Source: a virus. From it: 41,839 nt of DNA. Where the stretch lies: IMG/VR virus record IMGVR_UViG_3300044994_000073; one strand, 5' to 3'. Under the pieces are notes generated by a model, which searched no databases, had not been told where the DNA came from, and worked only from the letters and a program-made list of their open reading frames with translations. The translations under genes and the position numbers were made by a program. The first letter of the stretch is position 1, and each line of letters starts with the position of its first letter. Below are positions 3,556 to 26,227 of the stretch, one piece after another.

Positions 3556-3603
3556 TGTATGCTGATGTTGGTTCATGGGTTTTGCCCTGTGTGAGTTGTG
3601 TGG

Positions 3604-3639: not shown

Positions 3640-3642
3640 GCG

Positions 3643-3671: not shown

Positions 3672-3683
3672 CGAATTGTGAAC

Positions 3684-4298
3684 ATGGAAACTTTACAAGT
3701 CATCGGGCTCCACGGCTATGCTGGAGTTGGAAAAAGCACACTGGCAAAAGAACTAGAACGGTTGGGCTGGACTCGCATGTCGCTATCCACACCAATCAAA
3801 GAAATGCTCAAAGCGATAGGCCTTTCTGAAGACGATCTTGCCAACAAAAACTCGCCCCCAGCACTGGCCGCGTTTAATGGCAAAACGACTCGCTATTTAC
3901 TCCAAACGCTCGGCACTGAGTGGGGGCGCAATCTGGTTTCGCCTACAATATGGGTCGATCTTGCCGCGGAAAAAATCAAGCGGTTGCACATGGAAGGAGT
4001 CTGCAAAGTCGTCATCGATGATGTGAGGTTCCCTGAAGAAGCCGAACTGGTGAGAAGTCTTGGGGGCTCTGTGGTGCTCATTGAGCGTAGAGGCCTACGA
4101 AAAAATAGCGGTATCACAAATGAGGCCGAAAGACGGCATTCTTCAGAAAGCCGATTGAGCAGCCGGTATCTGGCATGGTCCGCCCGAATCGCGGAAGGCC
4201 ACGAGAGTGTGGCCGAAGTCGCGAGAACGCTTGATTCCATGAGCGACCAAAAAGCCAAGGGCTGCGGGGGTAGTTGCTATGGCTGGGTGGCGTGGTAA
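3684..4298 (+). CDS. Deoxynucleoside monophosphate (dNMP) kinase-like P-loop kinase
   Basis: P-loop IGLHGYAGVGKSTLA. LLQTLGTEWGRN...IWV and VVIDDVRFPEEAE match the phage dNMP-kinase pattern. The track start 3552 would read through the hairpin, so I use the ATG at 3684. Confidence 0.7.
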   Translation: METLQVIGLHGYAGVGKSTLAKELERLGWTRMSLSTPIKEMLKAIGLSEDDLANKNSPPALAAFNGKTTRYLLQTLGTEWGRNLVSPTIWVDLAAEKIKRLHMEGVCKVVIDDVRFPEEAELVRSLGGSVVLIERRGLRKNSGITNEAERRHSSESRLSSRYLAWSARIAEGHESVAEVARTLDSMSDQKAKGCGGSCYGWVAW

Positions 4299-8019: not shown

Positions 8020-9009
8020 ATGGCTACTCTAGGTCAAACCGCGTTGACCCTCGCAGATTGGGCCAAGCGCGTTGATCCCAATGGCAGCATTCCGAGCATC
8101 GTTGAGTTGCTTTCGCAGACCAACGAAGTTCTGGATGACATGCTTTGGGTCGAAGGAAATCTGCCTACTGGACACAAAACCACCGTTCGCTCGGGCCTGC
8201 CCTCCGCGACATGGCGGTTGCTGAACTATGGCGTGCAACCCAGCAAGTCTCGCACCGTGCAAGTGCAGGACACTTGCGGGATGCTTGAGGCCTACGCCAA
8301 GACAGACAAGGCCCTTGCCGACCTCAACGGTAACACGCCTGAATTCCGCTTGTCGGAAGATAAGGCGTTCATCGAGGCCATGAACATCGAGTTCGCTAAC
8401 ACGCTGTTCTACGGCAACACTGAGGTCAACAAGGAGCGGTTCTTGGGGCTCGCGCCTCGGTTCAACTCGCTGACTGCTGAGAACGGCAAGAACATCATCA
8501 ACGGCGGCGGCACCGGAACTGGCAATACGTCGGTCTGGCTCGTCGTTTGGGGGGATCAGTCCGCCCACGGAATTTTCCCGAAAGGCGGCAAAGCCGGTCT
8601 TCAAGTCCGCGATCTTGGCGAAGACACTGCTAGCGACGGTAACGGCGGCGAATATCAGATTTACCGCACCCATTATCGTTGGGACTGCGGACTGACCGTT
8701 CGCGACTGGCGTTATGTCGTTCGCATCGCCAATATCAAAGTCAGCCAGTTGGTTAAGGACGCCAGCTCTGGTGCCGACCTGATCGACTTGATGGTTCAGG
8801 CTCTTGAGCAGGTCCACAACTTGAAGATGGGTCGCCCTGTCTTCTATTGCAATCGGACCGTGCGTTCGTTCCTTCGTCGGCAGATCGCGAACCGCGACAA
8901 TGTCAATCTCACGCTTGACACCGTCGCCGGTAAGCATGTTTTGAACTTTGATGGTGTTCCGGTCAAACGCTGTGACGCCATCATTTCGAACGAAACTGCG
9001 GTCGCTTAA
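8020..9009 (+). CDS. Major capsid protein (HK97-fold, BPP-1/Bbp17-like type)
   Basis: Strong AAGGAG SD, 329 aa. N-terminal pattern LTLADWAKRVDPNGSI..IVELLSQTNEVLDDMLWVEGNLPTGH, plus position. Confidence 0.88.
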   Translation: MATLGQTALTLADWAKRVDPNGSIPSIVELLSQTNEVLDDMLWVEGNLPTGHKTTVRSGLPSATWRLLNYGVQPSKSRTVQVQDTCGMLEAYAKTDKALADLNGNTPEFRLSEDKAFIEAMNIEFANTLFYGNTEVNKERFLGLAPRFNSLTAENGKNIINGGGTGTGNTSVWLVVWGDQSAHGIFPKGGKAGLQVRDLGEDTASDGNGGEYQIYRTHYRWDCGLTVRDWRYVVRIANIKVSQLVKDASSGADLIDLMVQALEQVHNLKMGRPVFYCNRTVRSFLRRQIANRDNVNLTLDTVAGKHVLNFDGVPVKRCDAIISNETAVA

Positions 9010-9737: not shown

Positions 9738-10339
9738 TGGCGAACATCGTTCAGATATGCAACTTGGCCTTATCGCGTGTCTTGGCTCCGGCTATCCAGT
9801 CGCTGGATGATCCTACGCGCGAGGCCCAAGTGTGCCGTCGTCATCTTGCGATTGTAAGAGAGGCTGTTCTGAACGATTTTGATTGGAGCTTCGCCCGTAG
9901 GGTAGCTCCACTGGCTCTTACGACCGTTGAGCACCCCGCGTGGGACTACGTTTATGCTAAGCCTGCTGATTGTTTGACGCCGCGGCGCATTGTGAATCCA
10001 GCCGATCCGAAAGGCTCTAATCCGTATCTTCGAATCGACTTTGAAGTAATCTCACACCCGTCGCAAGGCCTTCAGCTAATTGCTACGGATCAAGATGAAG
10101 CTGAATTGGTCTATACGGCTAATATCGACAACGCCACGGTTTTTGACCCCGGATTCGTTGATTGTTTGGCATGGCGGCTAGCGGCTGACATTGCGCTTCC
10201 GCTTCGTGGCGATAAGCAACTGCTTCAAGTCACGAACAATGCCTATATGCGGGCGTTGGCCGCTGCTGCGGCTGATAGTGTGAACCTTAGTCACATTAAG
10301 CCTACCGGGTGGGGCGACTTTGCGGACGTGCGCAAATGA
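9737..10339 (+). CDS. Tail tubular protein A / adaptor (T7 gp11-like)
   Basis: 200 aa. N-terminus ICNLALSRVLAPAIQSLDDPTREAQVCRRHLAIVREAVLNDFDWSFA parallels T7 gp11 ([40 protein letters not shown]). Confidence 0.65.
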   Translation: MANIVQICNLALSRVLAPAIQSLDDPTREAQVCRRHLAIVREAVLNDFDWSFARRVAPLALTTVEHPAWDYVYAKPADCLTPRRIVNPADPKGSNPYLRIDFEVISHPSQGLQLIATDQDEAELVYTANIDNATVFDPGFVDCLAWRLAADIALPLRGDKQLLQVTNNAYMRALAAAAADSVNLSHIKPTGWGDFADVRK

Positions 10340-12363
10340 AAATTCGTCAGGCGTCTTTCACCGGTGGCGAAATATCGCCCGAACTGTGGGTCCGGCCTGA
10401 TTTGGAGAAGTGGGCGTCGTCGCTTCGCAGACTTGAGAATTTTTTGCCCCGGGTCCGCGGCTCAGTCGAAAACCGGCCCGGTTTCCGCTTTGTTAACGGC
10501 ACTAAGTTCAACAACAAAAAGTCTAGGCTTTGGGCTTTTCAGTTTTCGGTCGTGCAGTGGTATGTGCTTGAGTTCGGGGACCAATATATTCGCTTTTACA
10601 AAGATGATGGCATTATACTAGACACTAGCAACAATATATACGAAATTTCGACTCCCTACACAGAAGCTGATTTACCGAAATTGAAGTTCGAGCAAAGCGC
10701 GGACGTTCTTTACATTTTTTCTCCTAACCACAAAATGCGCGAGCTTACAAGAATCTCGCATAATAACTGGACGCTGTCTGTTCAAACAAACGGAACAGGT
10801 ATAGCCGCTCCGACAATTACATACTCGTATCCATATAACGACAGTTCGTATGGCTACGCTGTAACTGCTGTTAATTCAAGCGGCGTAGAGTCTTTGTCGT
10901 CCAATGTAGCTTTAGCTGGAGGTAGAGGCTACACGCTAAGTTGGGCCGCCGTAACCGGCGCGGAATACTATAACGTCTATGAAATATGGTTCGGTGCGTG
11001 GGCTTTCATAATGCGGACTGAGTTAACAAGTGTTGTAACTCCTACCAACCCGTCAAGGGACGTAAAAAGAACGCCGCCCAAAAATGTTTTGCCGTTTGAA
11101 ACTGCTAACAACTACCCAGCGGTGGGGGCCTTCCACGATCAAAGGCTCTATCTCGCCAGAACCAATAACCGCCCGCAAACCATTTGGGGCTCTCGAACCG
11201 GAGATTTCCGAAACCATAACAGATCGTCGCCGGTTCAAGACGACGACGGCATTCAGTTTACGATTGACTCGTCTTCGGTTAATGAGATTCGCTGGCTAGC
11301 GTCAATGGGCGACCTCATTATTGGAACTAGTGATAGCGAATGGATCATGACTCCGGCACCTAATCAGCCAGCCATAACGCCGTCTTCCGTTAAACTGAAA
11401 ATCCAAAGCCGGTGGGGCTGTGCAGATTTACAACCCCACATTGTCGGCGACGCTGTGCTTTTTGTTGACGGGAGTCAAAAACGAATCCGTGACATGGGCT
11501 ACTCGCTCGAAAAAGACGGTTACGCTGGCGACGATTTAACAGTGTTGGCGCAGCACCTTTTTGATAAAAGCAAAATAGTGCAGTGGGGGCACGCGAAGTA
11601 TCCGGATTCCGTGTTATGGGCCCTTCGTGAAGACGGCGTGTTATGTAGCCTGACATACCACAAAGGCCACAAAGTTTACGCATGGGCGAGGCACACAACG
11701 GACGGAGTCATTGAAAGCGTGGTGTGCCCTACCGTTGGCGAGGGCCAATCTCAAGTGTGGGTAGTAGTGCGCCGCACGGTCGGCGGTCAGCAGGTCCGCT
11801 ATGTTGAGCGATTGGCCGAAAGAGACTTCGACAACATCGAGGATGCGTTTTTTGTCGATAGCGGTCTGACGTATTCCGGGCCCCCAGCGACCACAATTTC
11901 TGGTCTAAGCCATTTGAACGGTCGCACGGTTGTTGCTTTTGCTGACGGCAACGTAGTGCCGGACCTTGAAGTAAGTAACGGTTCAATCACGCTCCCCAAC
12001 CCGGCAGCTAAAGTCCATGTCGGCCTGCCATACACATGCGTTTGCGAACCGATAGGATTCGACTACCAAGTTGCCGAAACAAACTCCGCGCTGTCTGTTC
12101 GGCGGCAGGTCTCCAGTGTCATCGTGGGGCTCCGGGACAGCCGAGAGCTGTGGGCGGCTACCGCTCCCGGGTATGAGTATTTTGAAGTCCCAATGCGAGA
12201 CACGGAAGACTACGGCGAACCGATCGAGCCTTTCACCGGGGACAAAGAGATATTTGTTTCGCCGTCCGGTCTTAGAGACGCCCGCATATCGTTTGAAGTG
12301 CGGAGCCCGGTCCCCTGCACAATAACCAGCGTGACCGCCGTTATTAGCGATGGCCAAGACTAA
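10336..12363 (+). CDS. Tail tubular protein B / nozzle (T7 gp12-like)
   Basis: ATGA coupling to the adaptor gene, 675 aa. N-terminal FTGGEISPELWVRPDLEKW..L..LENF..RVRGSVENRPGFRFV is typical of this family. Confidence 0.72.
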   Translation: MKIRQASFTGGEISPELWVRPDLEKWASSLRRLENFLPRVRGSVENRPGFRFVNGTKFNNKKSRLWAFQFSVVQWYVLEFGDQYIRFYKDDGIILDTSNNIYEISTPYTEADLPKLKFEQSADVLYIFSPNHKMRELTRISHNNWTLSVQTNGTGIAAPTITYSYPYNDSSYGYAVTAVNSSGVESLSSNVALAGGRGYTLSWAAVTGAEYYNVYEIWFGAWAFIMRTELTSVVTPTNPSRDVKRTPPKNVLPFETANNYPAVGAFHDQRLYLARTNNRPQTIWGSRTGDFRNHNRSSPVQDDDGIQFTIDSSSVNEIRWLASMGDLIIGTSDSEWIMTPAPNQPAITPSSVKLKIQSRWGCADLQPHIVGDAVLFVDGSQKRIRDMGYSLEKDGYAGDDLTVLAQHLFDKSKIVQWGHAKYPDSVLWALREDGVLCSLTYHKGHKVYAWARHTTDGVIESVVCPTVGEGQSQVWVVVRRTVGGQQVRYVERLAERDFDNIEDAFFVDSGLTYSGPPATTISGLSHLNGRTVVAFADGNVVPDLEVSNGSITLPNPAAKVHVGLPYTCVCEPIGFDYQVAETNSALSVRRQVSSVIVGLRDSRELWAATAPGYEYFEVPMRDTEDYGEPIEPFTGDKEIFVSPSGLRDARISFEVRSPVPCTITSVTAVISDGQD

Positions 12364-12871: not shown

Positions 12872-13331
12872 CGTGATTTCTACAGCCGTTGGTGCTTACG
12901 GCGCGTATGCCGCCCAACAAGCGCAAAACCGACAAGCGGAGGCCCAAGCTAAATACAACGAGATGATGGCCAAGGACGCGATCGCCCGCGGTCAAATCGA
13001 GGCCGATAAAAAACGCGCCGAAGTCAAACGATTGATCGGCTCGCAGCGGGCCGGACTCGGTGCGAGCGGCGTTCAGATCGAAGACGGCTCTGCAATGGAT
13101 ATTCAGGCCGATGCTGCGAAATTTGGGGAACTTGACGCTTTGACGATTAAAAACAACGCCGAGCGGGATGCGTGGGCTTACAGAGCTCAGGCCAGCATTG
13201 CAAGGGCGTCTAAAGGCTCCGCTGCTTTGGCGGGGGCCTCTTCGCTTCTGGCTGGCGCAAGCAACACGCTTGGCATTTACAGAACCTCGTTTCCGTCGAA
13301 AGAGAAGCCGCCACAAGCACAAGCCGGTTGA
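12831..13331 (+). CDS. Internal virion (ejection) protein, gp14-like, N-terminal TM
   Basis: Hydrophobic N-terminus PAIPVAMVALSVISTAVGAYGAYAA. The motif AGLGASGVQIEDGSAMDIQ...ELDALTIKNNAERDAWAYR is common in podovirus internal proteins. Confidence 0.65.
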   Translation: MCAPAIPVAMVALSVISTAVGAYGAYAAQQAQNRQAEAQAKYNEMMAKDAIARGQIEADKKRAEVKRLIGSQRAGLGASGVQIEDGSAMDIQADAAKFGELDALTIKNNAERDAWAYRAQASIARASKGSAALAGASSLLAGASNTLGIYRTSFPSKEKPPQAQAG

Positions 13332-13333
13332 CC

Positions 13334-15070
13334 ATGCCAGTTATTCCAACATACGAACCGGGCCAAGTCCGAAACAACCCGCTTAATACGCCGAACGTAA
13401 CAGCGGACGCTTTCGGCTATAGAGACGCAGTCAATCTTCAGCGACTTGGCGCGGCTGGCAACGATTTTCTGCAGCAGGCCGCGGCACTTTATCGGGAGCG
13501 GCTTGACGAACATGACAGGCTCGTCGTGCAAAGCGCGCTTAATGACGCCACGCTCAAAGCGACGCATTTTCTCCAGAATGATGTCTATAGCAAGAGCGGT
13601 TCTGAGGCCTTAACTGCTGCAGATAAAGCCGCGGAAACTCTCGACAAGATCGGTGCTGAATCAAGCTCGAAGCTTAACCAACGTCAGCAAGCCTTGTTCG
13701 GGAAAGCATTTGCGCAGCTTCGGACTAATAATTTAGAGTCCGTGATTGGGTTCCGCGCTAAAGCCCAAGAGCAATACCGACTGGATACTTTAAGCTCAGG
13801 AATTGAGTCTTCGATTTATTCGGCTTCGCAGAATCCTTACAACGAAAATTATCTGCACGACACAGCGATAAAAGTCGCTAACATGGTCGAAGAGCAGCAC
13901 CGTGGCCGTGCACCGGAATTCATCGAAGAACAGAAGCGAAACAAAATCTCCGAAGTTTACGCCCGAGCAATCGCTACAATCGCCGACCGCGATCCGGCTG
14001 AAGCTTTAGCATTGGCCGAAAAATATAAGGACTACATGGCCCCGGAAGTCCACGACAAACTCGCCGGGGCACTGGACCAAATGGTTAAAAAGAGATCTGT
14101 GGAGAATGCGGCTATTCAGGCCGTCCACGGAAAAGTCCCAGGCTCTGAAGCGGCTGACAAGACTTTGGACGAAATGGGGGTCAGTGATCCTGTCAAGAGG
14201 GAAGAGCTCAAGCAAACATTCATGAAGGCCTACATGGTCGAAGAGTCAAAAATCACTGAAGCCGAGAGGTCGCAGATCAACGAGGCCCTCGATGCGATTT
14301 TGCAAGACCCCCGCGGTGCCAAAGTCCCCGAGTCTCTTCCTAGCGATTTGCAGTCTAAAATCGCCCGGTTCCAGATGAATTTGCTTGAGGGTGACAGGCC
14401 GACTAACTACGCCACTTTTCACAAATTGCTCGATATGCAGCAAAATGACCCGGCGGGGTTTGCTAAGCTCAAGCTGGAAGACTATAGCAGCCAGTTGAGC
14501 AACGACCATTTTAGGAGTCTTATACTTGCCCAAATGGACACGATTAAGGCAAACGGCGCGTTTGCCGGGCCGAAACCGCCAAAGCAGTTTAGAACGGAAT
14601 CCGCCGAGGCCCAAGTCCGACAAGCGGCAAAAAGCATAGGCCTCAATTCGAACGGCGACGAAGAAGACCGTCTTAAATACAACGCTTTCTGCGCATACAT
14701 GGACAACGTGATTAGTCAGATTCCAGAGTCTGAGCGGACCCAATTAAGGATCGATCAGGAAATCAAAAAAGCGCAGACGCCTGTATTTAACGGGGACCGC
14801 ACTTGGTGGTTCACGAAAAAGATGATCCCGCTTTACATGCACGAATATCTCACAAGCGAGTATGCTGTGCCGGAAAAGTTAAGGGGCGGTGACGGTGAGC
14901 CTATCTCCGGATTGAAGCCCGTGACTCTTAACGACCGGGAGCGCGTTCCGTCGTTGCCGGGCAAAATCAAATGGTATCGCGTGTTCGAAATGGGCGGTCG
15001 CCGATATTCCGAATTTTACGATAAAAATGGGGAGCCCGTTAAATTTAAGCTGGACTCCCTTAATAAGTAA
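13334..15070 (+). CDS. Internal virion (ejection) protein, gp15 position
   Basis: 578 aa, helical and charged. The track start 13328 is TTG; the ATG is at 13334, just after the upstream stop. Confidence 0.6.
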   Translation: MPVIPTYEPGQVRNNPLNTPNVTADAFGYRDAVNLQRLGAAGNDFLQQAAALYRERLDEHDRLVVQSALNDATLKATHFLQNDVYSKSGSEALTAADKAAETLDKIGAESSSKLNQRQQALFGKAFAQLRTNNLESVIGFRAKAQEQYRLDTLSSGIESSIYSASQNPYNENYLHDTAIKVANMVEEQHRGRAPEFIEEQKRNKISEVYARAIATIADRDPAEALALAEKYKDYMAPEVHDKLAGALDQMVKKRSVENAAIQAVHGKVPGSEAADKTLDEMGVSDPVKREELKQTFMKAYMVEESKITEAERSQINEALDAILQDPRGAKVPESLPSDLQSKIARFQMNLLEGDRPTNYATFHKLLDMQQNDPAGFAKLKLEDYSSQLSNDHFRSLILAQMDTIKANGAFAGPKPPKQFRTESAEAQVRQAAKSIGLNSNGDEEDRLKYNAFCAYMDNVISQIPESERTQLRIDQEIKKAQTPVFNGDRTWWFTKKMIPLYMHEYLTSEYAVPEKLRGGDGEPISGLKPVTLNDRERVPSLPGKIKWYRVFEMGGRRYSEFYDKNGEPVKFKLDSLNK

Positions 15071-15094: not shown

Positions 15095-18000
15095 ATGGAC
15101 CCTTTCGAGCAGCCCCAAGAAGACAACGGCATTTTAGCAACCGCTGGTTTAGATAGCGCGCCTCCCGCGCCTAAACAACTCCAGCCATCTGTGGCAGATA
15201 GCGGAAGCAGCTTGCTTGATGCCGCGGGGCTTCCTTCGGCAGAAGAGTCTCTTCGATTGCCGAAGGGCGGGGCGGCTTTTGCTGACCAGATACCCGGCGA
15301 GCTGCTGAAAATGCCAAAGGCTCTCCGGGCCGAATACGTCGCCAAGCTATCCGGAGACATTCAGGAAGGCCTTAAATGGATGGGAGAATCTCCAGAGAAA
15401 GCCGCCGAGATTGCAGCGGTGATGCGCCGCTTTAATCTTCCCGCCGATAAAGCCAAAGAGCAGCTTCCGGAAATTAAGGCCTCTGAAGAGTCGATCAAGA
15501 TAGCCAAAGAGCTATTGGCGACGGATGAAAAAGGTGAGCCGTTGTATCCGGCTTTGGCCAAATTAGCGGCTGATCCGTCGCATTTAATCGGCGACAATGA
15601 GCGCAGAAAAGCCCTCATGGAAATTGAAGAGTCCGTCCGGCAATCGAAGCAAGCGGACGAGGGCTTTCTTACTCAACAGGCCCGCGGGATTGTTAACGCC
15701 TTATTCTCTCTTTTAGACACCGGAGTTTCTTCGTATCACGCTGTAGCGGCTGCTAGGGCTGACGCATATTGGCAGCAGATTCTCGACAACTTGCCCGCGG
15801 GCATTGACCCACAAGTCCGGGACGAGCTCATCAAGATCAAAGACGAGGCTCTAAATCAAAGCATAGAAATACGCAATGCCCGGAGCGAAATCGCCGAAAG
15901 TATGCTGGGCGGTTTTTCACCGGAAAAAGCAGCGAACTTTTTTAAGCCGCAAGCAGGGGAGTCTCCGACAGAGCTGATTTCGAAAGGCTTTTACACTGAG
16001 GGGGCTTACCAATTTGTTAACCAAGGCCTCCAGTCTTTGTATGATTGGGCGGCTGCGTCCGTAGCCGCCGCGGGCAACCCAACGGGGGCTATGGCGTTAT
16101 TGTCCGCTAAGTCCGCTTTCGGCGCGTTTGATGAAGCGCAACGCGATGGGGCGTCAAAAGAAAACGCCATCGTGAGAGCCGGGGGCCACGGACTCTTAGA
16201 ATACGTGTTCGAAAAACTGGGGACCCTTGGGATTATTAAAGAGGCCTCCAGTGTTAAGAAATTAACGCCCAAATCTATGTTGGGTTTGGCGTCAAGATCG
16301 TATGCTACGGAAGCTGTTTCTGAAGGTGCGACTTCGGCATTTCAAAATCTTGTAACCATAGCTACCGACGGAAACATGGGGCTCCGGGAGTTTCTGTTCA
16401 GCATTTCAGATTCAGCTTTGGCCGGGGGGTTCAGCGGCGCGGCTATGAGCACTATAATTTCTACAGCTAGTTATGGGCTCAACTACAAGAAAATACACAA
16501 CGCCGAAAACAAACTTGCCCAGCATGACGGTCTTGCGGAAAAGATTAAATTCGTTGCGGCTAAAAACGCCGATCCGCAAGCAACACAATCTGCGGTAGAA
16601 ACCATACTCAATGAGCACCAAGTCTCCGACGAAGTGTTTGTTCCGGCCTCGAAGGTTCGCAATCTGTTCCAGACCGACGAACAGTATGTTGAGTTCATGG
16701 GCAAACTTGGCGTCTCTGAGCAGCAGGCCATTGACGCTTTAACAAACGAAGCCGCTAGCGAGCTTAAAGTCAAATACTCTGCATATCTGGCGCATTCGGC
16801 TACTGTCAGTAACATCGAGTCCATCAAGGCCGACTTGCGGTTTGGCGAAAACAACATGACCGCCAATGAAGCGGCCATGACGAAAGCGTGGCTAAACGAA
16901 GAGATCAACACCATTCGTGAGCGGCTTGCCGCTGAAAGCACCGGTGTGTTGCCTGCGCAGATTCAAGCTATTCGAGAGTCCCTCAAGAATTTTAGAAACC
17001 AAGACGGCGGGGGTTTTACTCAGGAGCAAATTGACCACTATTTGAATCTGATGCTTTCCGGTGCCGCGATCGCTGCGAAACGGCAAGATGTCTCCGTCGA
17101 AGATTGGCTGTCCGCAAATGGCGTTAATGTCAACGTAAACACCAAAGCCGTGTTTGCTCCGGACGGCAAAAGCATCTGGATTATTCCGGAAGGCCAACCG
17201 AGTCCGCAGGAACTCTACGCAAAAGACATGGCAGAACAGCGGGAGTTCATGCGGCAGAAGATGCTTGAGAACCCGAATTTCACCGACGAAGACTTCCAGC
17301 GATGGGCCGAAGAATGGAGGGCTGCGCACCCGCGTTTCGATAAAAACGGTAAGCAGCTTTTCCAAGAGGCCCCCGAATCGAGTAATCGTTCGCCGAGAGT
17401 CGGTTTGGAGTTCAAAGACTTTTTCAGGAAAGTCACTTCGGGCTTGTTCGGAAAAAGCAAAATACCGTTTGTGCCGGAGCTGATCGATCTTTCCAAAGAC
17501 AAAAAGATCATCGAAGAAATGCACAAATACATTGGTAACTTCGATGACCACATTTTTAAGAGCATTCCGGCTTTTTACGAATTGAAAGTCAGAACCATCA
17601 AAGGCTTTTTGACGCTACCCAAAGGTTCCAAAGTTCTAGACATTGCGGCGTCTGAAGGCTCTTTCGGAAAGACTATTTCCGCGCTTTCGAAAGGCAAAAT
17701 CGAAACTGTGTCTCTTGACCCGAACAGGGCCATGAAGAAAACCTTTGATGATCTGCCACAGGCCCCCGGTGCGGCATTTGCTGCGGAGGCCTTTCTCAAC
17801 GGCTTCCGTGATGAGGAGGACGGAGTTACATACAACGCCCATAATCCAGACGTAAAATACGACGCGATCCATGAGTCGATGGGCTTTCAGTTTATTGACC
17901 CGGACCGCACAGCTCAAATTGCTGAAGTCGTAAGACTGCTCAAAGACGACGGCCTATTTGTAACGTCTGAAAAGCTGCTGAACCCCGACTGGGAAAAGAA

Positions 18001-21000
18001 CGAAAAGTTCAAAGACCAAGAGCACAAAAACAAGTATTTCACCGAAGAAGAGCAAAAACAAAAAGCGGAGAAGGTCGGATTCTCGCAATCCAAGCAGGAC
18101 GAGCAAACCGTCGGGATGGTTGACAATATGGTCCAGCGGCAAGAATTTGAAAAGCTGCTGGCTCAGAATTTCCGCTATGTCGCGCAGTATTGGGACTCCG
18201 GAAACTTCCAAGGCTATGTCGCCTCAAATTCATTTGAGAAAGTGGACAAGTTCCTGAAAGCCGCAGGTGATCTGAACAACAAGTTCAGCACCGGCCCGCT
18301 TGTGCATTATGTGAGCGGGGACCCGGTTGTTCGCCGTGGCCAAGTTGTATCCACCACTGGCGCGGAAACTCAAGAAGGCTCTCCGGCATTTACTGATTTT
18401 AAGGCCGTCTTTGGAGCAAAGCGTTTTGTCGATTCTTTGGTCGGGGCCCTTCTGGAAGGCTACCCTCAGTTGGGCGGAAAAGCCACCGAATTAGAGCTCT
18501 TGGGGCTTAAATCGGATAAAGAAGACGAAAAGCTTAAAGAGAAGAAAAAGCAGATCAGAAAAGAGCTTGTCGGAAAAATGACCGACAAAGAAAAAGAGGG
18601 CCTCATCAAAAAGTTTGTTGAGCGAATCGAAGACAATTTGATCTGGCTGTATAACAAGACTCCTAAAGACTTCAGAGAAAAATCTTCCAGATGGTATGTT
18701 GGAGCGAATAGGCTAGCAAATGAACTCGCTGAAAAATACGGCATCACGATAGAGCAATCGTCGGCCATCATCGCTGTTTTGAGTCCGCGGACGGCTTGGG
18801 ACCTCAACATCGGACAAGCCATTTGGGTGATGCGGGTAATGACTGATCCTACCGCCGTCGTCACTCAAAATTTGATCGACAGTTTTTATGCAGGATTGGA
18901 GGACTCTGTAACGGATGGGGAAAAACCCCTTGCTGATAAAGACGCATTGGCCGGTCTAATAGGCAAGCCGATAAATGAAATTGAAAATCTGGACCATCAG
19001 GCGTGGATGCTGCGAGCTTATGTTGAGTCACAAGACCGCAGCTATCATATTTACGACCCCACTGGAACTCCGGTCGGCAAAGCGATCGACAAGGAAGGCA
19101 AACTGTCAGAATTGGCGTGGAATAGCTATGGAAATACAAAGAAAGCCATAGAAATTTTCAAAGGCGCAGACATCGAAAAAATCAGCGATTTGCTGGGCGG
19201 CGCGCATAAAATACGAAACTTCTACAATAACATCGTTGACCCAACAAACGCTGAAAGTGTAACCATCGATACGCACGCTATCGCCGCCGCGTTGTTCGCG
19301 CCTTTAAGTCAAAAAAGCAAACCGGCCAATGACGTTTTTAGCGGGCCGTCTAACACTGAGCTTGGGCTTAAAGGCCTTTACATACTCTATGATGAGGGCT
19401 ACAAGCGCGCGGCTTCTAAACTCGGTATCACTTCAAGAGAACTTCAAAGCATCGTTTGGGAAGCGGCCCGTTCAGTATTCACGGACACACTGAAACGGGA
19501 TAAAGCCCTTGTTGAAAAAGTGTCCGCAGAATGGGCCGAATTCCAGAACGGTGGTCAGTCGCTAGAAGAAACCCGAGAAAAGATTTTTAAGTTGGTTGAC
19601 GGATTTAAGCAAAACCCGCGCAACTGGGTTTCCGATACAGACGTTAAAGAAAACGACATCGCCGCCGGAGTTAACATCCGGCTTGAATCTGAAAACGGTG
19701 AAGCCCGAACCAAGAGCGGCTTGAGTAGTCTTCAGGCCCAACAACTCATCGAACGTGAGTTCGGCGCAATCGCCAGAAAACTTAAAGCGGGCTTGAGTCA
19801 GAACTACATTGGCCATGACGCAAGCTACATTTATTCCGGCAGGCAAGGCTCCCATTACATCGAATTCAACCCATCGGCATTAGCAAACGACTACACTATC
19901 GACGAGATTCGCGCGGCAATGCGCGAAGAAATCGTGCACGCTGCGATTGGTCAAGTGCTCAGAAAACGCGGCCTAAGCTGGACACAGTTTCACGAAAACG
20001 TGGCCAAGCTGATGACCAAAGATGAAAAAGCCGCGCTCAAAAAAGTCTATACGTCTTTGAGCCTAAAAGACCATGTCGGTGTCGGTGCGGAGTTTGTTCG
20101 GCTCATCATTCAGAAGCAACTTTATCATGTCGCGACCGAAGAGGCGTCCGGCAAGAGCCGAGCCGTTAAGTATGTGCTGAAGGCCGTCGCTCAGGCCCAT
20201 AATTTCCTACGGCGGCTCAAAGCGGACAGCAGTGCCGAGGCCCAGCAAATCCGGGCCGTGATGAACGAAGCCGTGGACATCATCCGGTCTGCAGATAAGA
20301 CTTTACAATCTTCTCCGGGTAGGATACTATTCCAAAGTGAAAATGACCCAAGTGCTCAAAATGGCGGCAGTCAGGTTCTGGCTAGCCTTCCGCTGCCTGA
20401 GAAACAACTCTACTTTGCGTCTGAGCTACGTAATCAGGCGCAGGCTACTCTCGCCGCGCTACCTGTTCTCGACGCAAATCAAATTGCGCAAATAGTCGGC
20501 GGGGCCAAACTGGAGCAGCCGGGCGGCTCCGAAGTCATGGGGCTGTGGAGGACCCCGACCGGAATCGTTAAGGCCCTCGACTTTGACTCAGCCCTGCATC
20601 TTGAGGACTTAATAATCACCGGATACGGCGGGCTCGCTGCGGATATTTACGACTCCTCTAGCAATACTCCGGAAGAGACCAAGCTCAGACTTGTTGAGCG
20701 GTATCTGCTGCTGAATTCGATGAATTCGGGCACGCCGACTCAACTGCTGGGCATGACCGACATCTATGGTCCGCCGACTCTGCTTATCAGCCAGCCAGAA
20801 ATGTTCGGCGTGCCGAACTGGTATGACGCTGATGTCAATGACGTAATTGACAAATTGCTAGAAAATAAAAAGGCCGTTAAAATCACCAACTTCCGATCTC
20901 TGCTGCTGAACGCCGATAGCACAGCGCAGACTTACGTGGTGCAGATTCCGTCCGGTGCTTATGTGCTGGTGTCGGATTTGCGGGGGCCCAACGCAGGCTA

Positions 21001-24000
21001 CACAGGGCTGGATCGAAAAGACGCTAAGACATTCGACCCCATAATCCGAATGCTCACACCGGGCGAGCTCAAGATTCCTGAGATTGCCGCCGCCGTTAAC
21101 GAGATCGAAACGAAGCAGCAAAATAATGCCTACTTCCAGAACGAGGACCGCGGGCCGCGGGTTAACGGAGCAATCGAATTCAATCCGGGTAACGTGACGA
21201 TACATCTGTTCAAGACCGCCAACTTGAGCACATTGCTGCATGAATTGGGCCACTTGTTTGTTGGGGAGCTGGAGCGTCAAGTTCGCGCTGGATTTGGCGG
21301 GCCGAAAGCCCTTGCCGAACTCAACACGCTCCGGGCTTTTGTTGGCGCGCTTGACCCAAGTAAAGAGCTGACCACTGAGCAGCACGAAAAGCTGGCCCGG
21401 GCCTTTGAAAGCTATCTTCGTGAAGGCCGCGCCCCGACGATCGGGCTCGCCCGCGCTTTCCACAGTTTCAGGACTTGGCTCACTGCAGTCTATCGTGGCA
21501 GCTCAATTCTCGACATTGAGATGAGCCAAGAGGTCAAAGAAGTGTTTGACCGGCTGCTGGCGGCTGAAGAGGAAATCGCTCAGGCCGAACAGTTCTACGG
21601 GAACCGAGACAGACTTTTAGCCCTGATCGCCGTTGAAAACGACGAAGAAAAACTCAAACAGAAACTAGAAGACGCCCGGCGATCCGAATTGGAGCACCAG
21701 ACATCGATCAGACTGAAAGCATACATTCGCGCCCTTGGCGGTCTCAGCAAAATTAAGACTGAGCAAACAGCTCAAGTTGAGTCACTGCCTGTTTACCAAG
21801 CAATCGAAAAAGCGAAAGCGCAAGGCGGCATATCGGCTGGTTCAATCGCCGCGTTGCTTGGTGACTCCGCCGTGGAGGTCCTCGCTAATAAATACCCGAA
21901 TCTAATCACCGATGACGGTCTAGACATTAGCGGGCTCGCTTTTGATGTTGGACTGACCAGCGGCGAGCAGCTCGCCGAACAGCTACGTGACGCGGTCCCG
22001 ATCAGCGAAGCAATCAATGCCGCTGTCAAACAAGAATTGCGCCGCGTTGAAGAGTCCATACGCAACGACATTTCGAAAAGCCCTATCACCGAAGCGGATG
22101 AAGCTCTGCATTCTGACAAGTCTCTAGAATATCTGATCGCCGAAACAGAGCTGCTACGATCCAAATTAAAAAGAAAATCGGTTCGACCGCGGCTCTTTGC
22201 TGAAGCCTACACGCAGGCCGCTGAGGAGTTCTTGGGCTCTCTCAAATTCTCAGACTCGATAAATTACTCTAGATTCCTGAATCAGGAAAAACGCCTTGGC
22301 GCGGAAGTCCTAGCCGCAGCCCGCAAAGGCGACTGGGACCGTGCTTACCAGTTGCGTGAAAAACAACTTTTGTATCACGCGATTGTCCGGGCCAGCATCA
22401 AGGCTCGCAAATACCGTGAGAATTTAGAGCGGCGGTATTCCAAGAGCAAAGTCAATTCGTTGCTCGACAAAATTGAAATGGCGTATCGGCCAGTGGTCCA
22501 GACTTTGTTGTCACGGTATGGACTGCTGCAGTTTGATGGCGCAGAGTTTAATCTGAGTGATTTGCGTGAACTCGACGAAGACGGCGGGTTGGACGCTTTG
22601 ATGCCGGACTGGATCAAGCAAAAACAGAATATCGGGGGCTACCGGAATCTGACACTTAGCCAAGTTCGCGAGCTTGACGAAACTATCAAGAGCATTGTCG
22701 CGTATGGCCGTGACGCCATGACATCGCTCAAAGAATCAGAAGCGAAGACGCTTAGCGAGTTTGTCCAGAGTAGCGTTGAGCGTATGCAAAAACTGAAAGA
22801 CGCCAAAACCGCTCAGCGCGGAGATTGGAACTACCCGCTCATTCAGTTCGCGCATCAGATCAAAGCCGGGGTTCAGATGGCCCAATTCGTGGCCGACATT
22901 GCTGACGGCTTCACCAATCTGAAAGAAGGCAAACAGGGTCCGCTCCGTAAGCTTTATCAGCGGCTCGTCACTGCTGAGCTGGAACAATCTAAGCTGGTTG
23001 ACACAGTGCTGAAGGCCAGTGAACCAGCTTGGCAAGTGCTGCATCAAGCCGTGCTACGAATTGAGAAGGAGATGGGCGGAAAGTATTTCGACATCGACGG
23101 GCTTGAGCTACCACATGCGATGGTCCGCGAAGGCAAAGGCAAATGGACCGGTGAGATGGTGGTATCTGCGCTGCTCAACTGCGGGAACCAAGGCAACCTC
23201 ACCGCGCTTCGAGAGGGCTACAATCTTCCGGAAGATGCCGCCGACCGATTGGCCGCTCTGCTAACAGCTGAAGAGCTCTACGCCATTCAGAAGATATGGG
23301 ATGCCACTGATCTGCTGTTCGAGCCTATCAATCAGACCCACATCAAAATCTACAACCGGGAAATCAAAAAAGTCCAAGCCGATCCGTTGGTGCTCCGTTC
23401 GAAAGACGGCGCGGGCGTCAACCTAAGAGGCGGCTACTACCCGCTGATATTTGACCACGAAATCAATGCACGCGCCGGTAGGTTCAACGAAGAAGACCTG
23501 ATGAAGAACAAAGCCGCTGCGGTGTTTCGTTCGGTCACGCCAAACAGCGGGTTTGCTAAAACACGCCAAGGCACCTCGTTGCCGCCTGAACTGTCTCTCA
23601 ATGTGTGGATCAATCATGTTATCGACGCGAGCCGCTACGCAATGCTCGCGCCGGTAATTCGAGACTGGAACCGCGTATCGACCAAAGAAGAATGGCGCGA
23701 AACGTATCTCGATAAATTTGGCCGCGAGTCTTACAACGCGCTGCGAGACTGGGTCAAGTATCAGGCGGTGCCTAAACGTATGCAGACTGAGTCTTGGGTC
23801 CGGGGGCTCGACAAAGCCGCCGACTGGCTTAGGGCCCGATCCAGTTATGCGTTGTTGGGGTATAAACTCGTCTCTGGTCTCGCGCAGCGCACTGCGCTGC
23901 TTAACTCCGCGGTGGCTCTTGGCGGGTGGAAGTGGATCGGAATTGGATACTCTGCCGTTGCTCAAAAGGGGCTTGGCACCGCGTTGATTGGAACAACCAA

Positions 24001-24865
24001 CACTGACGCATGGAGCGCGATCATTGGGAAAAGCGAATACATGCGAAAACGGGAAGACAACATCGATCGCGAGATTCGCGACATTGTCAGCCGAATCCAA
24101 CTTGGCAAAAAAGTCTTCACGATTGCCGGGCGGGAATTCACTGTGAGCAATGTCCGCGATCTGGCGTTTGAGTGGATGAAAATGAACGACCGAGCTGTGG
24201 TTTCAGTTGTGTGGTCTGGCGCGTATCAAAAGTATCTCCAGACTCTAGCTGATGAGAGCATGACATTAGAACAGCGGGAGAAAGCCGCCGTGGAATACGC
24301 TGACACCGTCGTTCAAGACACCCAGCCGTCTGCGCTCAAAGCGGAAATGAGCTCCGCCGCCAGAGCAGAGGGGTGGGTGCGACTGTTCACCATGCTAATG
24401 ACGTGGTCCTTCAAATTTGGCAACCGCCTGTTCTACTACGGTAAGGCCTACTCAGAAGGCGCAGTGTCAACCAAAAACTATATTCGGCACATAACCTATG
24501 AGGTCTTTATGGAATCGTGGCTCCGCACATTGCTTTACAGCGCGATCGCCGGGACCGCGCCCGAATGGTGGAGATTCCTAGTCGGACCCATAGAAAACTT
24601 GATCCAATGGATTCCGATTATCCGCGACATTCCGGGAACTCTGGCGACAAAAGGCCAACTGCTAGACCTGAACAGATCGCCTTATATGGAAGGCTTCAGA
24701 AGAATCAGTAAGCTCATTAAATCCGCCGATCCGGAGAAGCTCCAAGAAGACGACGGCGTGAGCAGATTCGCTATGGATTTGTTCCGGGCCACCGCGTTTG
24801 TCACCGGCACCCCCATAGACAACATCGTCAATGACATCCGGCGATTCACTGATAGAAAGGATTAA
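15095..24865 (+). CDS. Giant 3256-aa virion/ejection 'polyvalent' protein (gp16 position) with a CmoA-like SAM-enzyme domain and a HExxH module
   Basis: Single uninterrupted 9771-nt ORF between the internal virion proteins and the tail fiber. Class I SAM-fold motifs at aa 816-1046. HELGH at aa 2049-2053. Confidence 0.9.
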   Translation: MDPFEQPQEDNGILATAGLDSAPPAPKQLQPSVADSGSSLLDAAGLPSAEESLRLPKGGAAFADQIPGELLKMPKALRAEYVAKLSGDIQEGLKWMGESPEKAAEIAAVMRRFNLPADKAKEQLPEIKASEESIKIAKELLATDEKGEPLYPALAKLAADPSHLIGDNERRKALMEIEESVRQSKQADEGFLTQQARGIVNALFSLLDTGVSSYHAVAAARADAYWQQILDNLPAGIDPQVRDELIKIKDEALNQSIEIRNARSEIAESMLGGFSPEKAANFFKPQAGESPTELISKGFYTEGAYQFVNQGLQSLYDWAAASVAAAGNPTGAMALLSAKSAFGAFDEAQRDGASKENAIVRAGGHGLLEYVFEKLGTLGIIKEASSVKKLTPKSMLGLASRSYATEAVSEGATSAFQNLVTIATDGNMGLREFLFSISDSALAGGFSGAAMSTIISTASYGLNYKKIHNAENKLAQHDGLAEKIKFVAAKNADPQATQSAVETILNEHQVSDEVFVPASKVRNLFQTDEQYVEFMGKLGVSEQQAIDALTNEAASELKVKYSAYLAHSATVSNIESIKADLRFGENNMTANEAAMTKAWLNEEINTIRERLAAESTGVLPAQIQAIRESLKNFRNQDGGGFTQEQIDHYLNLMLSGAAIAAKRQDVSVEDWLSANGVNVNVNTKAVFAPDGKSIWIIPEGQPSPQELYAKDMAEQREFMRQKMLENPNFTDEDFQRWAEEWRAAHPRFDKNGKQLFQEAPESSNRSPRVGLEFKDFFRKVTSGLFGKSKIPFVPELIDLSKDKKIIEEMHKYIGNFDDHIFKSIPAFYELKVRTIKGFLTLPKGSKVLDIAASEGSFGKTISALSKGKIETVSLDPNRAMKKTFDDLPQAPGAAFAAEAFLNGFRDEEDGVTYNAHNPDVKYDAIHESMGFQFIDPDRTAQIAEVVRLLKDDGLFVTSEKLLNPDWEKNEKFKDQEHKNKYFTEEEQKQKAEKVGFSQSKQDEQTVGMVDNMVQRQEFEKLLAQNFRYVAQYWDSGNFQGYVASNSFEKVDKFLKAAGDLNNKFSTGPLVHYVSGDPVVRRGQVVSTTGAETQEGSPAFTDFKAVFGAKRFVDSLVGALLEGYPQLGGKATELELLGLKSDKEDEKLKEKKKQIRKELVGKMTDKEKEGLIKKFVERIEDNLIWLYNKTPKDFREKSSRWYVGANRLANELAEKYGITIEQSSAIIAVLSPRTAWDLNIGQAIWVMRVMTDPTAVVTQNLIDSFYAGLEDSVTDGEKPLADKDALAGLIGKPINEIENLDHQAWMLRAYVESQDRSYHIYDPTGTPVGKAIDKEGKLSELAWNSYGNTKKAIEIFKGADIEKISDLLGGAHKIRNFYNNIVDPTNAESVTIDTHAIAAALFAPLSQKSKPANDVFSGPSNTELGLKGLYILYDEGYKRAASKLGITSRELQSIVWEAARSVFTDTLKRDKALVEKVSAEWAEFQNGGQSLEETREKIFKLVDGFKQNPRNWVSDTDVKENDIAAGVNIRLESENGEARTKSGLSSLQAQQLIEREFGAIARKLKAGLSQNYIGHDASYIYSGRQGSHYIEFNPSALANDYTIDEIRAAMREEIVHAAIGQVLRKRGLSWTQFHENVAKLMTKDEKAALKKVYTSLSLKDHVGVGAEFVRLIIQKQLYHVATEEASGKSRAVKYVLKAVAQAHNFLRRLKADSSAEAQQIRAVMNEAVDIIRSADKTLQSSPGRILFQSENDPSAQNGGSQVLASLPLPEKQLYFASELRNQAQATLAALPVLDANQIAQIVGGAKLEQPGGSEVMGLWRTPTGIVKALDFDSALHLEDLIITGYGGLAADIYDSSSNTPEETKLRLVERYLLLNSMNSGTPTQLLGMTDIYGPPTLLISQPEMFGVPNWYDADVNDVIDKLLENKKAVKITNFRSLLLNADSTAQTYVVQIPSGAYVLVSDLRGPNAGYTGLDRKDAKTFDPIIRMLTPGELKIPEIAAAVNEIETKQQNNAYFQNEDRGPRVNGAIEFNPGNVTIHLFKTANLSTLLHELGHLFVGELERQVRAGFGGPKALAELNTLRAFVGALDPSKELTTEQHEKLARAFESYLREGRAPTIGLARAFHSFRTWLTAVYRGSSILDIEMSQEVKEVFDRLLAAEEEIAQAEQFYGNRDRLLALIAVENDEEKLKQKLEDARRSELEHQTSIRLKAYIRALGGLSKIKTEQTAQVESLPVYQAIEKAKAQGGISAGSIAALLGDSAVEVLANKYPNLITDDGLDISGLAFDVGLTSGEQLAEQLRDAVPISEAINAAVKQELRRVEESIRNDISKSPITEADEALHSDKSLEYLIAETELLRSKLKRKSVRPRLFAEAYTQAAEEFLGSLKFSDSINYSRFLNQEKRLGAEVLAAARKGDWDRAYQLREKQLLYHAIVRASIKARKYRENLERRYSKSKVNSLLDKIEMAYRPVVQTLLSRYGLLQFDGAEFNLSDLRELDEDGGLDALMPDWIKQKQNIGGYRNLTLSQVRELDETIKSIVAYGRDAMTSLKESEAKTLSEFVQSSVERMQKLKDAKTAQRGDWNYPLIQFAHQIKAGVQMAQFVADIADGFTNLKEGKQGPLRKLYQRLVTAELEQSKLVDTVLKASEPAWQVLHQAVLRIEKEMGGKYFDIDGLELPHAMVREGKGKWTGEMVVSALLNCGNQGNLTALREGYNLPEDAADRLAALLTAEELYAIQKIWDATDLLFEPINQTHIKIYNREIKKVQADPLVLRSKDGAGVNLRGGYYPLIFDHEINARAGRFNEEDLMKNKAAAVFRSVTPNSGFAKTRQGTSLPPELSLNVWINHVIDASRYAMLAPVIRDWNRVSTKEEWRETYLDKFGRESYNALRDWVKYQAVPKRMQTESWVRGLDKAADWLRARSSYALLGYKLVSGLAQRTALLNSAVALGGWKWIGIGYSAVAQKGLGTALIGTTNTDAWSAIIGKSEYMRKREDNIDREIRDIVSRIQLGKKVFTIAGREFTVSNVRDLAFEWMKMNDRAVVSVVWSGAYQKYLQTLADESMTLEQREKAAVEYADTVVQDTQPSALKAEMSSAARAEGWVRLFTMLMTWSFKFGNRLFYYGKAYSEGAVSTKNYIRHITYEVFMESWLRTLLYSAIAGTAPEWWRFLVGPIENLIQWIPIIRDIPGTLATKGQLLDLNRSPYMEGFRRISKLIKSADPEKLQEDDGVSRFAMDLFRATAFVTGTPIDNIVNDIRRFTDRKD

Positions 24866-24868
24866 GCG

Positions 24869-26227
24869 ATGATCACCAACCAGAACAACAAAAGCACTTA
24901 CGTCGGGAACAATAACACCACGGTGTTCCCCCGGTTGTTTCCGGTCTGGAACGCGAACCAAGTAAAAGTTGTTTTGACTGAAAACAACACGGACACAGTG
25001 CTGACGCTTGGCACCCACTACACTGTTCAAGGTGTCAACAACCCAAACCCGTCAACGTGGACCATCACGTATCCGGTTAACGGCACGCCGCTGACTCCGT
25101 CTCAAAAGCTCACCATTGTCTCAAAGGTGCCGTATTTGCAGGATACCGACTTTGCAAACCAAGGCGGTTTCTTCGCCGAAACGCACGAAGATGTCGCGGA
25201 CAAAATGGTGCTGATGGTTCAGCAGCTGGCGGAAGAAGTTTCTCGGGCGGTAAAAGTCGCAATCGGTTCTAATACCACACCGGAGGCCCTCATCGCGCAG
25301 CTCCAAACAGACGCTGCAAACGCTACGGCGTCTGCTGCGGCTGCGGCTACTTCCGCAACCAACGCTGCGAACTCTGCGGCTGCTGCGGCTACTTCCGCAA
25401 CAAACGCGGCCAGTTCCGCCACGGCAGCTCAAAACAGCCAGAACAAGGCCCAGCAATGGGCTGAAAACCCATACAATGTCCCGGTTGACCCCGGCCAATA
25501 TTCAGCCAAGCACTGGGCCATAGTCGCGCAAAACAACGCCGCAGGGGACATGCTCAAAAGCACATACGACACCGACGACGACGGTGTAGTTGACGCCGCT
25601 GAATCAGTGCCTTGGTCTGGCGTGACTGGAAAGCCGAACACATTTACGCCATCTTCGCACACCCACCCAGCCTCAGACCTAACACAATCCGGTGCCGCAA
25701 ATGGAGACGTTCTGCAATGGAACGGCACGGCGTGGGTGCCCGCCGCGCCGTCATCTTCTAGCCTAAATTTTGTTGTGCTGAAAGATGTCAAAGCATCAGG
25801 CACCAATGGGCAAACTTTGACAGTAAATACTTGGAACAAGCGAGACATTAACACAGAAGAAACTGACACTGGAAACATTTGCACGCTTAACAACAGCCAG
25901 TTTACGCTGCCCGCCGGAACGTATCTCATTCAGGTCGCCATTACGTCTGGAACCCAAGGCGCGGCCAGAAAAGCGATCTTTCGCTTGCGGAACATTACAG
26001 GCAGCTCGGACGTTTTGTTTGGGAACACCTACAATTACGAGTCCGCATATACGAACCACGCTATGTCGTTTCTAGCTGGCGTTTTCACGGTAAACGCATC
26101 GACAACTTTTGAGATTCAGGAGCACCCGAAATCCAGCAACGGCAACCCGATTGCGAGCGGATACGCCGCAAGCGTATCCGGTTTCTCTGAATGCTACCTA
26201 ACAGCCGTAATTACCAAGGTCGCATAA
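24869..26227 (+). CDS. Tail fiber / receptor-binding protein
   Basis: N-terminus NKSTYVGNNNTTVFPRLFPVWNANQVKVVL, Ala/Ser-rich coiled region, YSAKHWA motif, distinct Ser/Thr/Asn-rich C-terminal domain. Confidence 0.8.
   Translation: MITNQNNKSTYVGNNNTTVFPRLFPVWNANQVKVVLTENNTDTVLTLGTHYTVQGVNNPNPSTWTITYPVNGTPLTPSQKLTIVSKVPYLQDTDFANQGGFFAETHEDVADKMVLMVQQLAEEVSRAVKVAIGSNTTPEALIAQLQTDAANATASAAAAATSATNAANSAAAAATSATNAASSATAAQNSQNKAQQWAENPYNVPVDPGQYSAKHWAIVAQNNAAGDMLKSTYDTDDDGVVDAAESVPWSGVTGKPNTFTPSSHTHPASDLTQSGAANGDVLQWNGTAWVPAAPSSSSLNFVVLKDVKASGTNGQTLTVNTWNKRDINTEETDTGNICTLNNSQFTLPAGTYLIQVAITSGTQGAARKAIFRLRNITGSSDVLFGNTYNYESAYTNHAMSFLAGVFTVNASTTFEIQEHPKSSNGNPIASGYAASVSGFSECYLTAVITKVA
25334..25417. 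repeat. Two copies of a 42-nt (14-aa) unit inside the tail fiber coiled region
   Basis: CTGCGGCTACTTCCGCAAC occurs at 25341-25359 and 25383-25401. Protein reads AAAATSATNAANS / AAAATSATNAASS. Confidence 0.8.

Follow-up and report, generated by a model that had tools for sequence, protein, structure and literature searches.

A virus-specific CmoA homologue as a predicted methyltransferase module in giant polyvalent-type podovirus proteins

CmoA carboxylates S-adenosylmethionine (SAM) using prephenate, which yields carboxy-SAM (Cx-SAM) and phenylpyruvate. It has a class I methyltransferase fold, in which the helices alpha2, alpha6 and alpha7 shut over the cofactor and obstruct the RNA site of RNA methyltransferases (PMC3663124). 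The pocket beside the SAM methyl group is kept hydrophobic (PMC10491745), a requirement of the ylide chemistry, the highly conserved Glu164 lies near the transferred group (PMC3663124) and Arg199 is the sole residue that touches the carboxylate of Cx-SAM (PMC3663124, PMC4482062). Phages have also recruited the CmoA fold. In the CmoA-CmoX-CmoY system of 5-carboxymethylcytosine DNA hypermodification (PMC12783734), the CmoAs are stand-alone proteins of ~230-260 amino acids (aa), which are 27-34% identical to Escherichia coli CmoA and encoded beside a C5-methyltransferase-like carboxymethyltransferase (CmoX), in many cases together with a ligase (CmoY). Here we analyze a CmoA-like domain from a viral DNA of 41,839 nucleotides, the IMG/VR record IMGVR_UViG_3300044994_000073, which in its full length is termed the window. 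The domain is encoded at 17540-18232 (+), within an uninterrupted open reading frame (ORF) of 3256 aa (15095-24865, +) for a putative internal or ejection protein of the polyvalent type.

Two further groups of proteins serve as a reference. CysG and BelI methylate the carboxyl groups of malate derivatives with the help of bound Ca2+, their substrates being 3-isopropylmalate and 3-sec-butylmalate, and belong to a group of compact, lidded methyltransferases for small anionic metabolites (PMC11408123). Polyvalent proteins (Iyer et al. 2017, PMC5512222) resemble the product of the giant ORF in being giant multi-domain proteins linked to the virion module, in having modules that occur both solo and fused and in carrying HExxH motifs, and relatives of our protein contain ART-PolyVal and GNAT, which along with MPTase and others are hallmarks of these proteins. 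The only methyltransferase in the main text of that study is the DarB-type, EcoKI/TaqI-like DNA adenine methyltransferase fused to a SWI2/SNF2 helicase, and a CmoA-like module is not mentioned there.

Translation of 17540-18232 yields aa 816-1046 of the giant protein, identical to the peptide for which a sequence-only reading of this DNA had claimed a similarity to CmoA that runs from end to end and exceeds the generic Rossmann motifs. Profiles were needed to evaluate this claim, since searches with single sequences were too weak to decide it. A nucleotide search of 17000-19000 against GenBank phages gave no match, the best E-value of a single-sequence phmmer search against the PDB was at least 0.18, and a Pfam scan of the domain returned only sub-threshold matches to the generic Methyltransf_11/12/25 models. 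Pairwise BLASTP with E. coli CmoA, whose sequence was checked against PDB 4GEK, gave 23% identity at E 7e-4. A profile of five sequences aligned with residues 23-240 of CmoA (204 columns, 94% probability). The profile of the whole family, comprising 155 sequences, was then compared by hhalign with a CmoA profile of nine sequences, namely E. coli CmoA and eight phage homologues, which were chosen for conservation as a search seeded with E. coli CmoA had given only sequences that were at least 84% identical. This profile-profile alignment reached 99.6% probability and E 8.8e-25 over 209 columns, covering residues 25-243 of the 247 residues of CmoA. Moreover, a hidden Markov model (HMM) of CmoA matches the window domain at E 1.4e-10 and detects members of the domain family in 85 of 87 sequences, representing the window and 86 related loci. 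When the family profile was searched against all PDB sequences, the top three entries were all CmoA (1im8, E 3.8e-8; 4iwn, E 8e-7; 4gek, E 1.2e-6), followed by BelI (E 2e-3) and CysG (E 0.02). CmoA is also the NCBIfam model that matches most family members (26 of 34), although no curated Pfam or NCBIfam model attains its cutoff on the domain. Finally, PHROG 4752 matches aa 813-1043 at E 5.8e-11. Its label "tRNA methyltransferase", which the phage CmoA homologues in GenBank carry as well, is the obsolete name of CmoA. Judged by these alignments, the domain is a full-length and specific homologue of CmoA, beyond a generic Rossmann likeness, and both parts of the earlier claim hold. Its span was correct for the core (17540-18232, +), which is delimited by the profile matches, PHROG 4752 and the structural comparisons below, but too narrow for the conserved module. 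BLAST coverage by 154 representatives rises from 10 to 100-154 across aa 751-1050 and is down to 12 by aa 1101, which gives a module of about aa 760-1090 (17372-18364, +, borders approximate) that includes short conserved N- and C-terminal extensions.

To compare the active sites, the cofactor contacts of CmoA (PMC3663124) were mapped onto the domain by concordant HMMER and hhalign alignments, and conservation was counted over the 155 family members. The N-terminal helix contains the motif FDDHIFKSIPAF (17540-17575, +), whose counterpart is CmoA F28-Y39, that is residues 28-39 and not the segment with which it had been paired before. H819, S823, I824 and P825 of this helix are invariant or nearly so, and F827 occupies the position of Tyr39, which touches the methionine part of SAM (100 Phe and 41 Tyr in the family). 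The glycine-rich, putative SAM-binding loop of motif I, LDIAASEG (17636-17659, +), corresponds to CmoA D62-G68. In it D849 (150/155), S853 (146/155) and G855 (151/155) are equivalent to Asp62, Ser66 and Gly68, and E854 (153/155) is found specifically in the phage family. The DPN sequence of motif II (17717-17725, +) provides the predicted acidic ligand of the SAM ribose, D875, which matches CmoA Asp89 and is Asp in 146 and Glu in 9 members, together with N877 (148/155). The motif IV region at the end of strand beta4, HESMGFQF (17870-17893, +), is even more constrained: E927, Q932 and F933 are present in all 155 members, M929 in 153 and H926 in 127. F933 coincides with the SAM contact Phe137, and S928 replaces the contact Asn132. 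D849, S853, D875 and F933 are thus retained, with substitutions at Tyr39 and Asn132, and the SAM-binding set appears intact across the family.

The similarity extends to the substrate side of the pocket. An SEK motif past strand beta5 (17966-17974, +) is shared with CmoA S163-E164-K165 (E959, 128 Glu and 26 Gln; K960, 155/155), and the hairpin motif WDSGNF (18191-18208, +) is equivalent to CmoA F230-F235, with the N234-F235 pair in common (W1033, 150/155; D1034, 135/155; N1037 and F1038, 154/155 each). In total, the pocket residues S35, P37, Q136, R143, E164-K165, K185, K198 and N234-F235 of CmoA are also found in the domain. Unlike CmoA, with which the window domain shares ~19% identity, the family adds E854, K859, N877, N969, E970, G1007-M1008, W1033 and D1034 as invariant or near-invariant residues. 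Charged residues of this kind in what would be a closed pocket of the CmoA type are E854, K859, E927, K960, E970, K973, K978, K990 and D1034. More than 20 polar residues are invariant or nearly so, which argues for purifying selection on an enzyme.

An AlphaFold2 (AF2) model of aa 805-1050 has a mean predicted local distance difference test score (pLDDT) of 92 and a predicted template modelling (TM) score of 0.90. Model, Foldseek search and alignment agree on a class I methyltransferase fold with an N-terminal F.D.I..S.P.Y helix and the two-helix alpha6-alpha7 lid seen in CmoA (TIGR00740; 4GEK, 4IWN, 1IM8), the lid helices of the model being formed by aa 966-980 and 984-994. The single disordered loop (aa 995-1006) would represent a 12-residue insert past the second lid helix that distinguishes the domain from CmoA. 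Foldseek against the PDB recovers MM_2633 (TM 0.70), CysG (0.68), CmoA (0.64-0.67) and BelI (0.64) at E 6e-12 to 3e-10, so that the best fold neighbours of the model all belong to a single group of class I methyltransferases that are small and lidded. The carboxyl O-methyltransferases CysG and BelI, together with MM_2633 (9FCY, 9FCE, 3DTN), are the closest in structure, but the sequence signal of CysG and BelI is far weaker than that of CmoA. Moreover, the two histidines of their His-His-Asp metal site fall on Q932-F933, which are Q136-F137 in CmoA; a CysG-like metal site was therefore rejected.

Is the domain a CmoA in the functional sense? The equivalog model TIGR00740 scores it at 18-19 bits, compared to a cutoff of 193.3 bits, and even the best match among 34 family members has an E-value of only 1.2e-10. 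Lys198-Arg199 of CmoA correspond to Lys990-Ala991 (18062-18067, +), with the same mapping in HMMER and hhalign. The lysine is retained in 154 of the 155 members, but the column of Arg199 contains 36 Ala, 26 Arg, 22 Gln, 17 Lys, 16 Asp, 14 Ser, 10 Asn and 9 Glu and appears unconstrained in the family. The equivalent of column 203, at which some phage CmoA homologues have their arginine, is Val1006 (80 Val, 52 Glu and 14 Thr). Furthermore, according to the alignment, the hydrophobic pair Val130-Leu131 of CmoA is replaced by His926-Glu927. The CmoA-specific contacts, which the sequence-only reading had singled out, are consequently divided: those to SAM are kept, the one to the carboxylate is not. 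Genuine phage CmoA genes are found in 85 GenBank phage records, and in all three records examined their neighbour encodes a DNA C5-methyltransferase, the CmoX partner of the 5-carboxymethylcytosine system (PMC12783734). An HMM built from these three partners, which in leave-one-out controls recovered them at E 5e-16 to 5e-60, had no match at E<=0.01 when the window and the 86 related loci (1.38 Mb) were translated in all six frames and searched. Neither CmoB nor CmoX nor C5-methyltransferase genes were found in these loci, and no second methyltransferase was recognized by Pfam and PHROG among the coding-strand ORFs of the window with at least 240 aa. Because of the low equivalog score, the absence of Arg199 and Arg203 and the lack of a C5-methyltransferase partner in the loci searched, we place the domain outside the CmoA equivalog, in what by sequence is a virus-specific sister family of CmoA homologues.

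The two arginine columns vary among relatives. A subclade of 20 of the 155 members (P0066, P0078, P0090, P0108 and others) has the pattern KR...EGM, with Arg at column 199, Glu at column 203 and a QTGGD insert between them. The window protein falls outside this subclade, in which a retention of Cx-SAM chemistry would be most plausible. Among the phage CmoA homologues, those of Erwinia and Alcaligenes phages and of PaBG have Arg at column 199, and those of a Staphylococcus SPbeta-like phage, Synechococcus S-CRM01 and Streptomyces TurkishDelight have it at column 203, one helical turn later. The homologues of Aeromonas HJ05 and Pseudomonas SM1 have Arg at neither column and possibly do not make Cx-SAM.

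An exhaustive search of 1.84 billion representative proteins identified 795 relatives of the domain, 356 of them (as 50%-identity clusters) at E<1e-30; a word-indexed homologue search had found just 4. Of the IMG/VR contigs, at least 137 contain the domain. In 185,579 species genomes it is limited to 3 contigs, all from metagenome bins, so that unlike CmoA the family is essentially absent from cellular genomes, and it occurs in a single one of 50,697 GenBank phage records, that of Maribacter phage Panino. The family is virus-specific, environmentally abundant and uncharacterized, and we found no published account of CmoA in virion or polyvalent proteins. Panino is a podovirus (PMC11590407). 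Its domain is part of an 1829-aa protein (PP540027.1, 28228-33717) whose gene stands at the end of the structural region, with 15 tRNA genes and a tmRNA gene directly after it; the protein is labelled "tRNA methyltransferase". This label is an annotation carry-over and not functional evidence, and the gene is not discussed in the Panino paper (PMC11590407).

Most of the 154 representatives listed are 2000-5600 aa long. Related giants also contain DUF7178, and those termed P0008, P0009 and P0012 contain ART-PolyVal, GNAT and DUF3293; UniProt A0A6J5P8Z9, another relative, is named "ART-PolyVal-like" after that domain alone. The flanks of the methyltransferase module differ between giants, indicating that the module is shuffled independently. 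Solo forms of 391-496 aa are encoded in phage contigs, including complete genes of 391 and 477 aa. Of 62 complete ORFs in the IMG/VR loci, 16 encode 480-560 aa, 11 encode 800-1100 aa and 35 encode at least 1700 aa.

In the window, the giant ORF is part of a structural module of the podovirus type. This module comprises genes for the terminase (2095-3555), the portal (5355-7067), the major head protein (8020-9009) and the tail tube protein (10309-12363), as well as for an internal protein with a lysozyme-like N-terminus (13328-15070) directly before the giant ORF and a tail fibre (24869-26227) directly after it. The replication genes are downstream of the module and mostly encoded by the other strand. 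The portal shares 42-45% identity with those of T7-supergroup podoviruses, and it is this kinship together with the structural gene order that puts the giant ORF where genes for internal core or ejection proteins are located. Hence the giant protein is probably packaged and injected with the DNA. The sequence-only reading had spoken of a virion protein, for which the gene order provides the grounds.

The 3256 aa combine the methyltransferase, DUF7178, an HExxH motif and the phrog_9880 region, although the hallmark domains of polyvalent proteins sit in related giants and the window protein itself has only the HExxH motif, which no Pfam model supports as a peptidase. This motif, HELGH (aa 2049-2053, 21239-21253, +), is the sole one of its kind in the giant protein and lies ~40 residues inside the phrog_9880 region (aa 2006-3242, 21110-24820, +, PHROG E 1.3e-137), which is common to ~24 other giants and is probably the structural or ejection part. 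By analogy with the polyvalent-protein theme (PMC5512222), it is possible that HELGH marks a zincin-type processing peptidase.

What would the domain do? Most likely it is a catalytically competent, SAM-dependent enzyme, predicted to serve as an interchangeable effector module of a podovirus ejection protein. We give an even chance to the more specific proposal that it is an active methyltransferase effector whose target is probably small and anionic or otherwise present in low copy number. According to this proposal SAM would be bound as in CmoA, by motif I (D849, S853, G855), D875, F933 and F827 of the N-terminal helix, and the substrate would be held beneath the two-helix lid with its invariant N969, E970, K973, K978 and K990. 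In a departure from CmoA, an ordinary methyl transfer onto a nucleophile under the lid would follow, in which His926-Glu927 could act as base or substrate anchor. The enzyme would act early, after delivery with the DNA, and might be cut out of the giant protein, a processing step for which the HExxH motif is a candidate. The catalytic roles of these residues and the type of substrate are deduced from the alignments. The charged, enclosed pocket and the closest structures, CysG/BelI and CmoA, point to a small and probably anionic substrate. The alternative would be a low-copy host or phage target, since the low copy number of ejection proteins suggests a target of low abundance, or at least argues against bulk depletion of a SAM-like metabolite.

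Several observations weigh against the proposal of an effector that methylates a small anionic target. Packaging of the giant protein is deduced from the gene order only, and the few injected copies would disfavour an abundant small-molecule substrate, which is in tension with the substrate class suggested by the fold. Moreover, unusually many CmoA pocket residues are kept (S35, P37, Q136, E164-K165, K185, K198, N234-F235), so that CmoA-like chemistry on an anionic co-substrate is possible, and one subclade does combine Arg at column 199 with Glu at column 203.

The alternative that survives best, although we regard it as doubtful, is methylation of a macromolecule, with host proteins, tRNA, rRNA and the incoming DNA of the phage as candidates. 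Phages are known to deliver enzymes with such targets, as is illustrated by the injected ADP-ribosyltransferase Alt of T4 and the virion DNA methyltransferase DarB of P1. In favour of this alternative, relatives are fused to ART-PolyVal and GNAT, domains that modify proteins, and a low copy number in the virion would fit a low-copy target. Relatives are labelled as tRNA methyltransferases in databases, but this is merely the obsolete name of CmoA. There is also a weak match to the methyltransferase mad2 of the MADS system (PADLOC, 23 bits), which we set aside as generic methyltransferase similarity. The closest structures, on the other hand, are all small-molecule enzymes that work under a closed helical lid, both helices of which are present in the model, and in CmoA this lid obstructs the RNA-binding site (PMC3663124). 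A role as DNA methyltransferase was rejected, as the catalytic motifs are not present: neither (D/N)PP(Y/F/W), including DPPY and NPPY, nor PCQ/ENV was found in the domain, its motif IV reads HESMGFQF, and no Pfam DNA-methylase model matches. The DNA methyltransferases known from polyvalent proteins belong to the unrelated EcoKI/TaqI family (PMC5512222).

The function put forward in the sequence-only reading is less probable still. It held that an injected CmoA-type enzyme might convert host SAM and prephenate into carboxy-SAM and thereby either drain the SAM pool or generate a modified donor to be used on DNA or RNA. CmoA is indeed the closest characterized family by sequence, and the pocket residues E164-K165, K185, K198 and Q136 are kept. 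Furthermore, CmoAs encoded by phages do exist and have high activity, the possibility that they deplete SAM has been discussed (PMC12783734), and Arg is found at column 199 in the subclade of 20. At the two columns from which an arginine could bind the carboxylate, neither of them constrained in the family, the window domain has Ala991 and Val1006, and the polar pair His926-Glu927, which may line the pocket next to the SAM methyl group, aligns with the hydrophobic Val130-Leu131 of CmoA. Its equivalog score is a tenth of what is required, and CmoB, CmoX and C5-methyltransferase genes were not found in the window and the 86 loci. CmoA is moreover slow and product-inhibited (PMC4482062), and a handful of injected molecules facing ~1e5 SAM molecules would not achieve a fast depletion. 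As the arginine that defines CmoA function is absent and the genomic linkage that does so was not found in the loci searched, the proposal of Cx-SAM formation is unsupported, and consumption of the SAM pool as a counter-defence fits poorly with so few enzyme copies.

The analogy drawn to the SAM lyase (SAMase) of phage T3 is limited to a SAM-directed counter-defence, since the domain has a class I methyltransferase fold with CmoA as best match and shows no sign of a SAM lyase. SAM lyase is also produced in quantity after infection and not delivered in a few copies. The fallback of the sequence-only reading, simply a methyltransferase, comes closer to the evidence but misses that the family is new and virus-specific. 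We likewise consider it improbable that the virion delivers CmoA-type SAM chemistry in a wider sense, making carboxy-SAM or another product from an anionic host metabolite, or that the domain inactivates a small anionic defence signal by methylation. If true, either would constitute a new class of injected SAM-based counter-defence that is widespread in environmental podoviruses.

A non-catalytic role as a SAM sponge or sensor, or as a structural remnant in the ejection protein, is very unlikely: CmoA binds its ligand very tightly (PMC4482062), but one or a few copies per virion make a poor sponge, and both the invariance far beyond the SAM site (E927, Q932, K960, E970, K973, K978, K990, N1037) and the retention of the module as a solo gene are typical of an enzyme.

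Other parts of the window deserve mention. On its downstream side the methyltransferase is adjoined by a module with matches to DUF7178 (18617-19474, +; Pfam PF23802, E 1e-27), phrog_3842 and phrog_2878, with a wider span of 18512-19639 (aa ~1140-1515). The motifs HK(V/I)RNFYNN and VT(I/V)DTHA of this module are invariant across nine giants. Its AF2 model is all-alpha (pLDDT 78) and has no fold neighbour in the PDB (best E 0.06, TM 0.15), nor was a sequence match found there, so that neither comparison hints at its function. The module looks like an uncharacterized enzyme. Both aa 1047-2005 and the C-terminal 1251 aa of the giant protein are without a significant sequence match in the PDB. Between the terminase and portal genes, an unusual place, is a gene for a deoxynucleotide monophosphate kinase-like protein (3552-4298, +; PF21448, E 1.5e-11), whose position may hint at a special nucleotide metabolism. 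Finally, three pentapeptide-repeat genes lie in tandem at 36977-37717, 37742-38602 and 38544-39083 (-; PF00805/PF13599, E 1e-23 to 1e-33). The pentapeptide repeat is the DNA-mimicking fold of Qnr and MfpA, and by analogy these proteins of the phage early region could have an anti-restriction or gyrase-directed function. PADLOC gave no match for them.

The initial observation of a CmoA-like domain was thus sharper than the database labels. What it has revealed is a widespread variant of a known theme, the enzymatic effector module in injected polyvalent proteins, on an unusual scaffold. Polyvalent proteins that are injected are regarded as the first strike of a phage on host defences, and most of the enzyme modules known from them are ADP-ribosyltransferases, acetyltransferases, peptidases and DarB-type DNA methyltransferases. 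To these is added a large CmoA-derived, SAM-dependent family of which we have found no description. With Maribacter phage Panino there is a culturable test system, and the identity of the substrate would reveal both a new activity of early infection and the re-tooling of the unusual CmoA scaffold.

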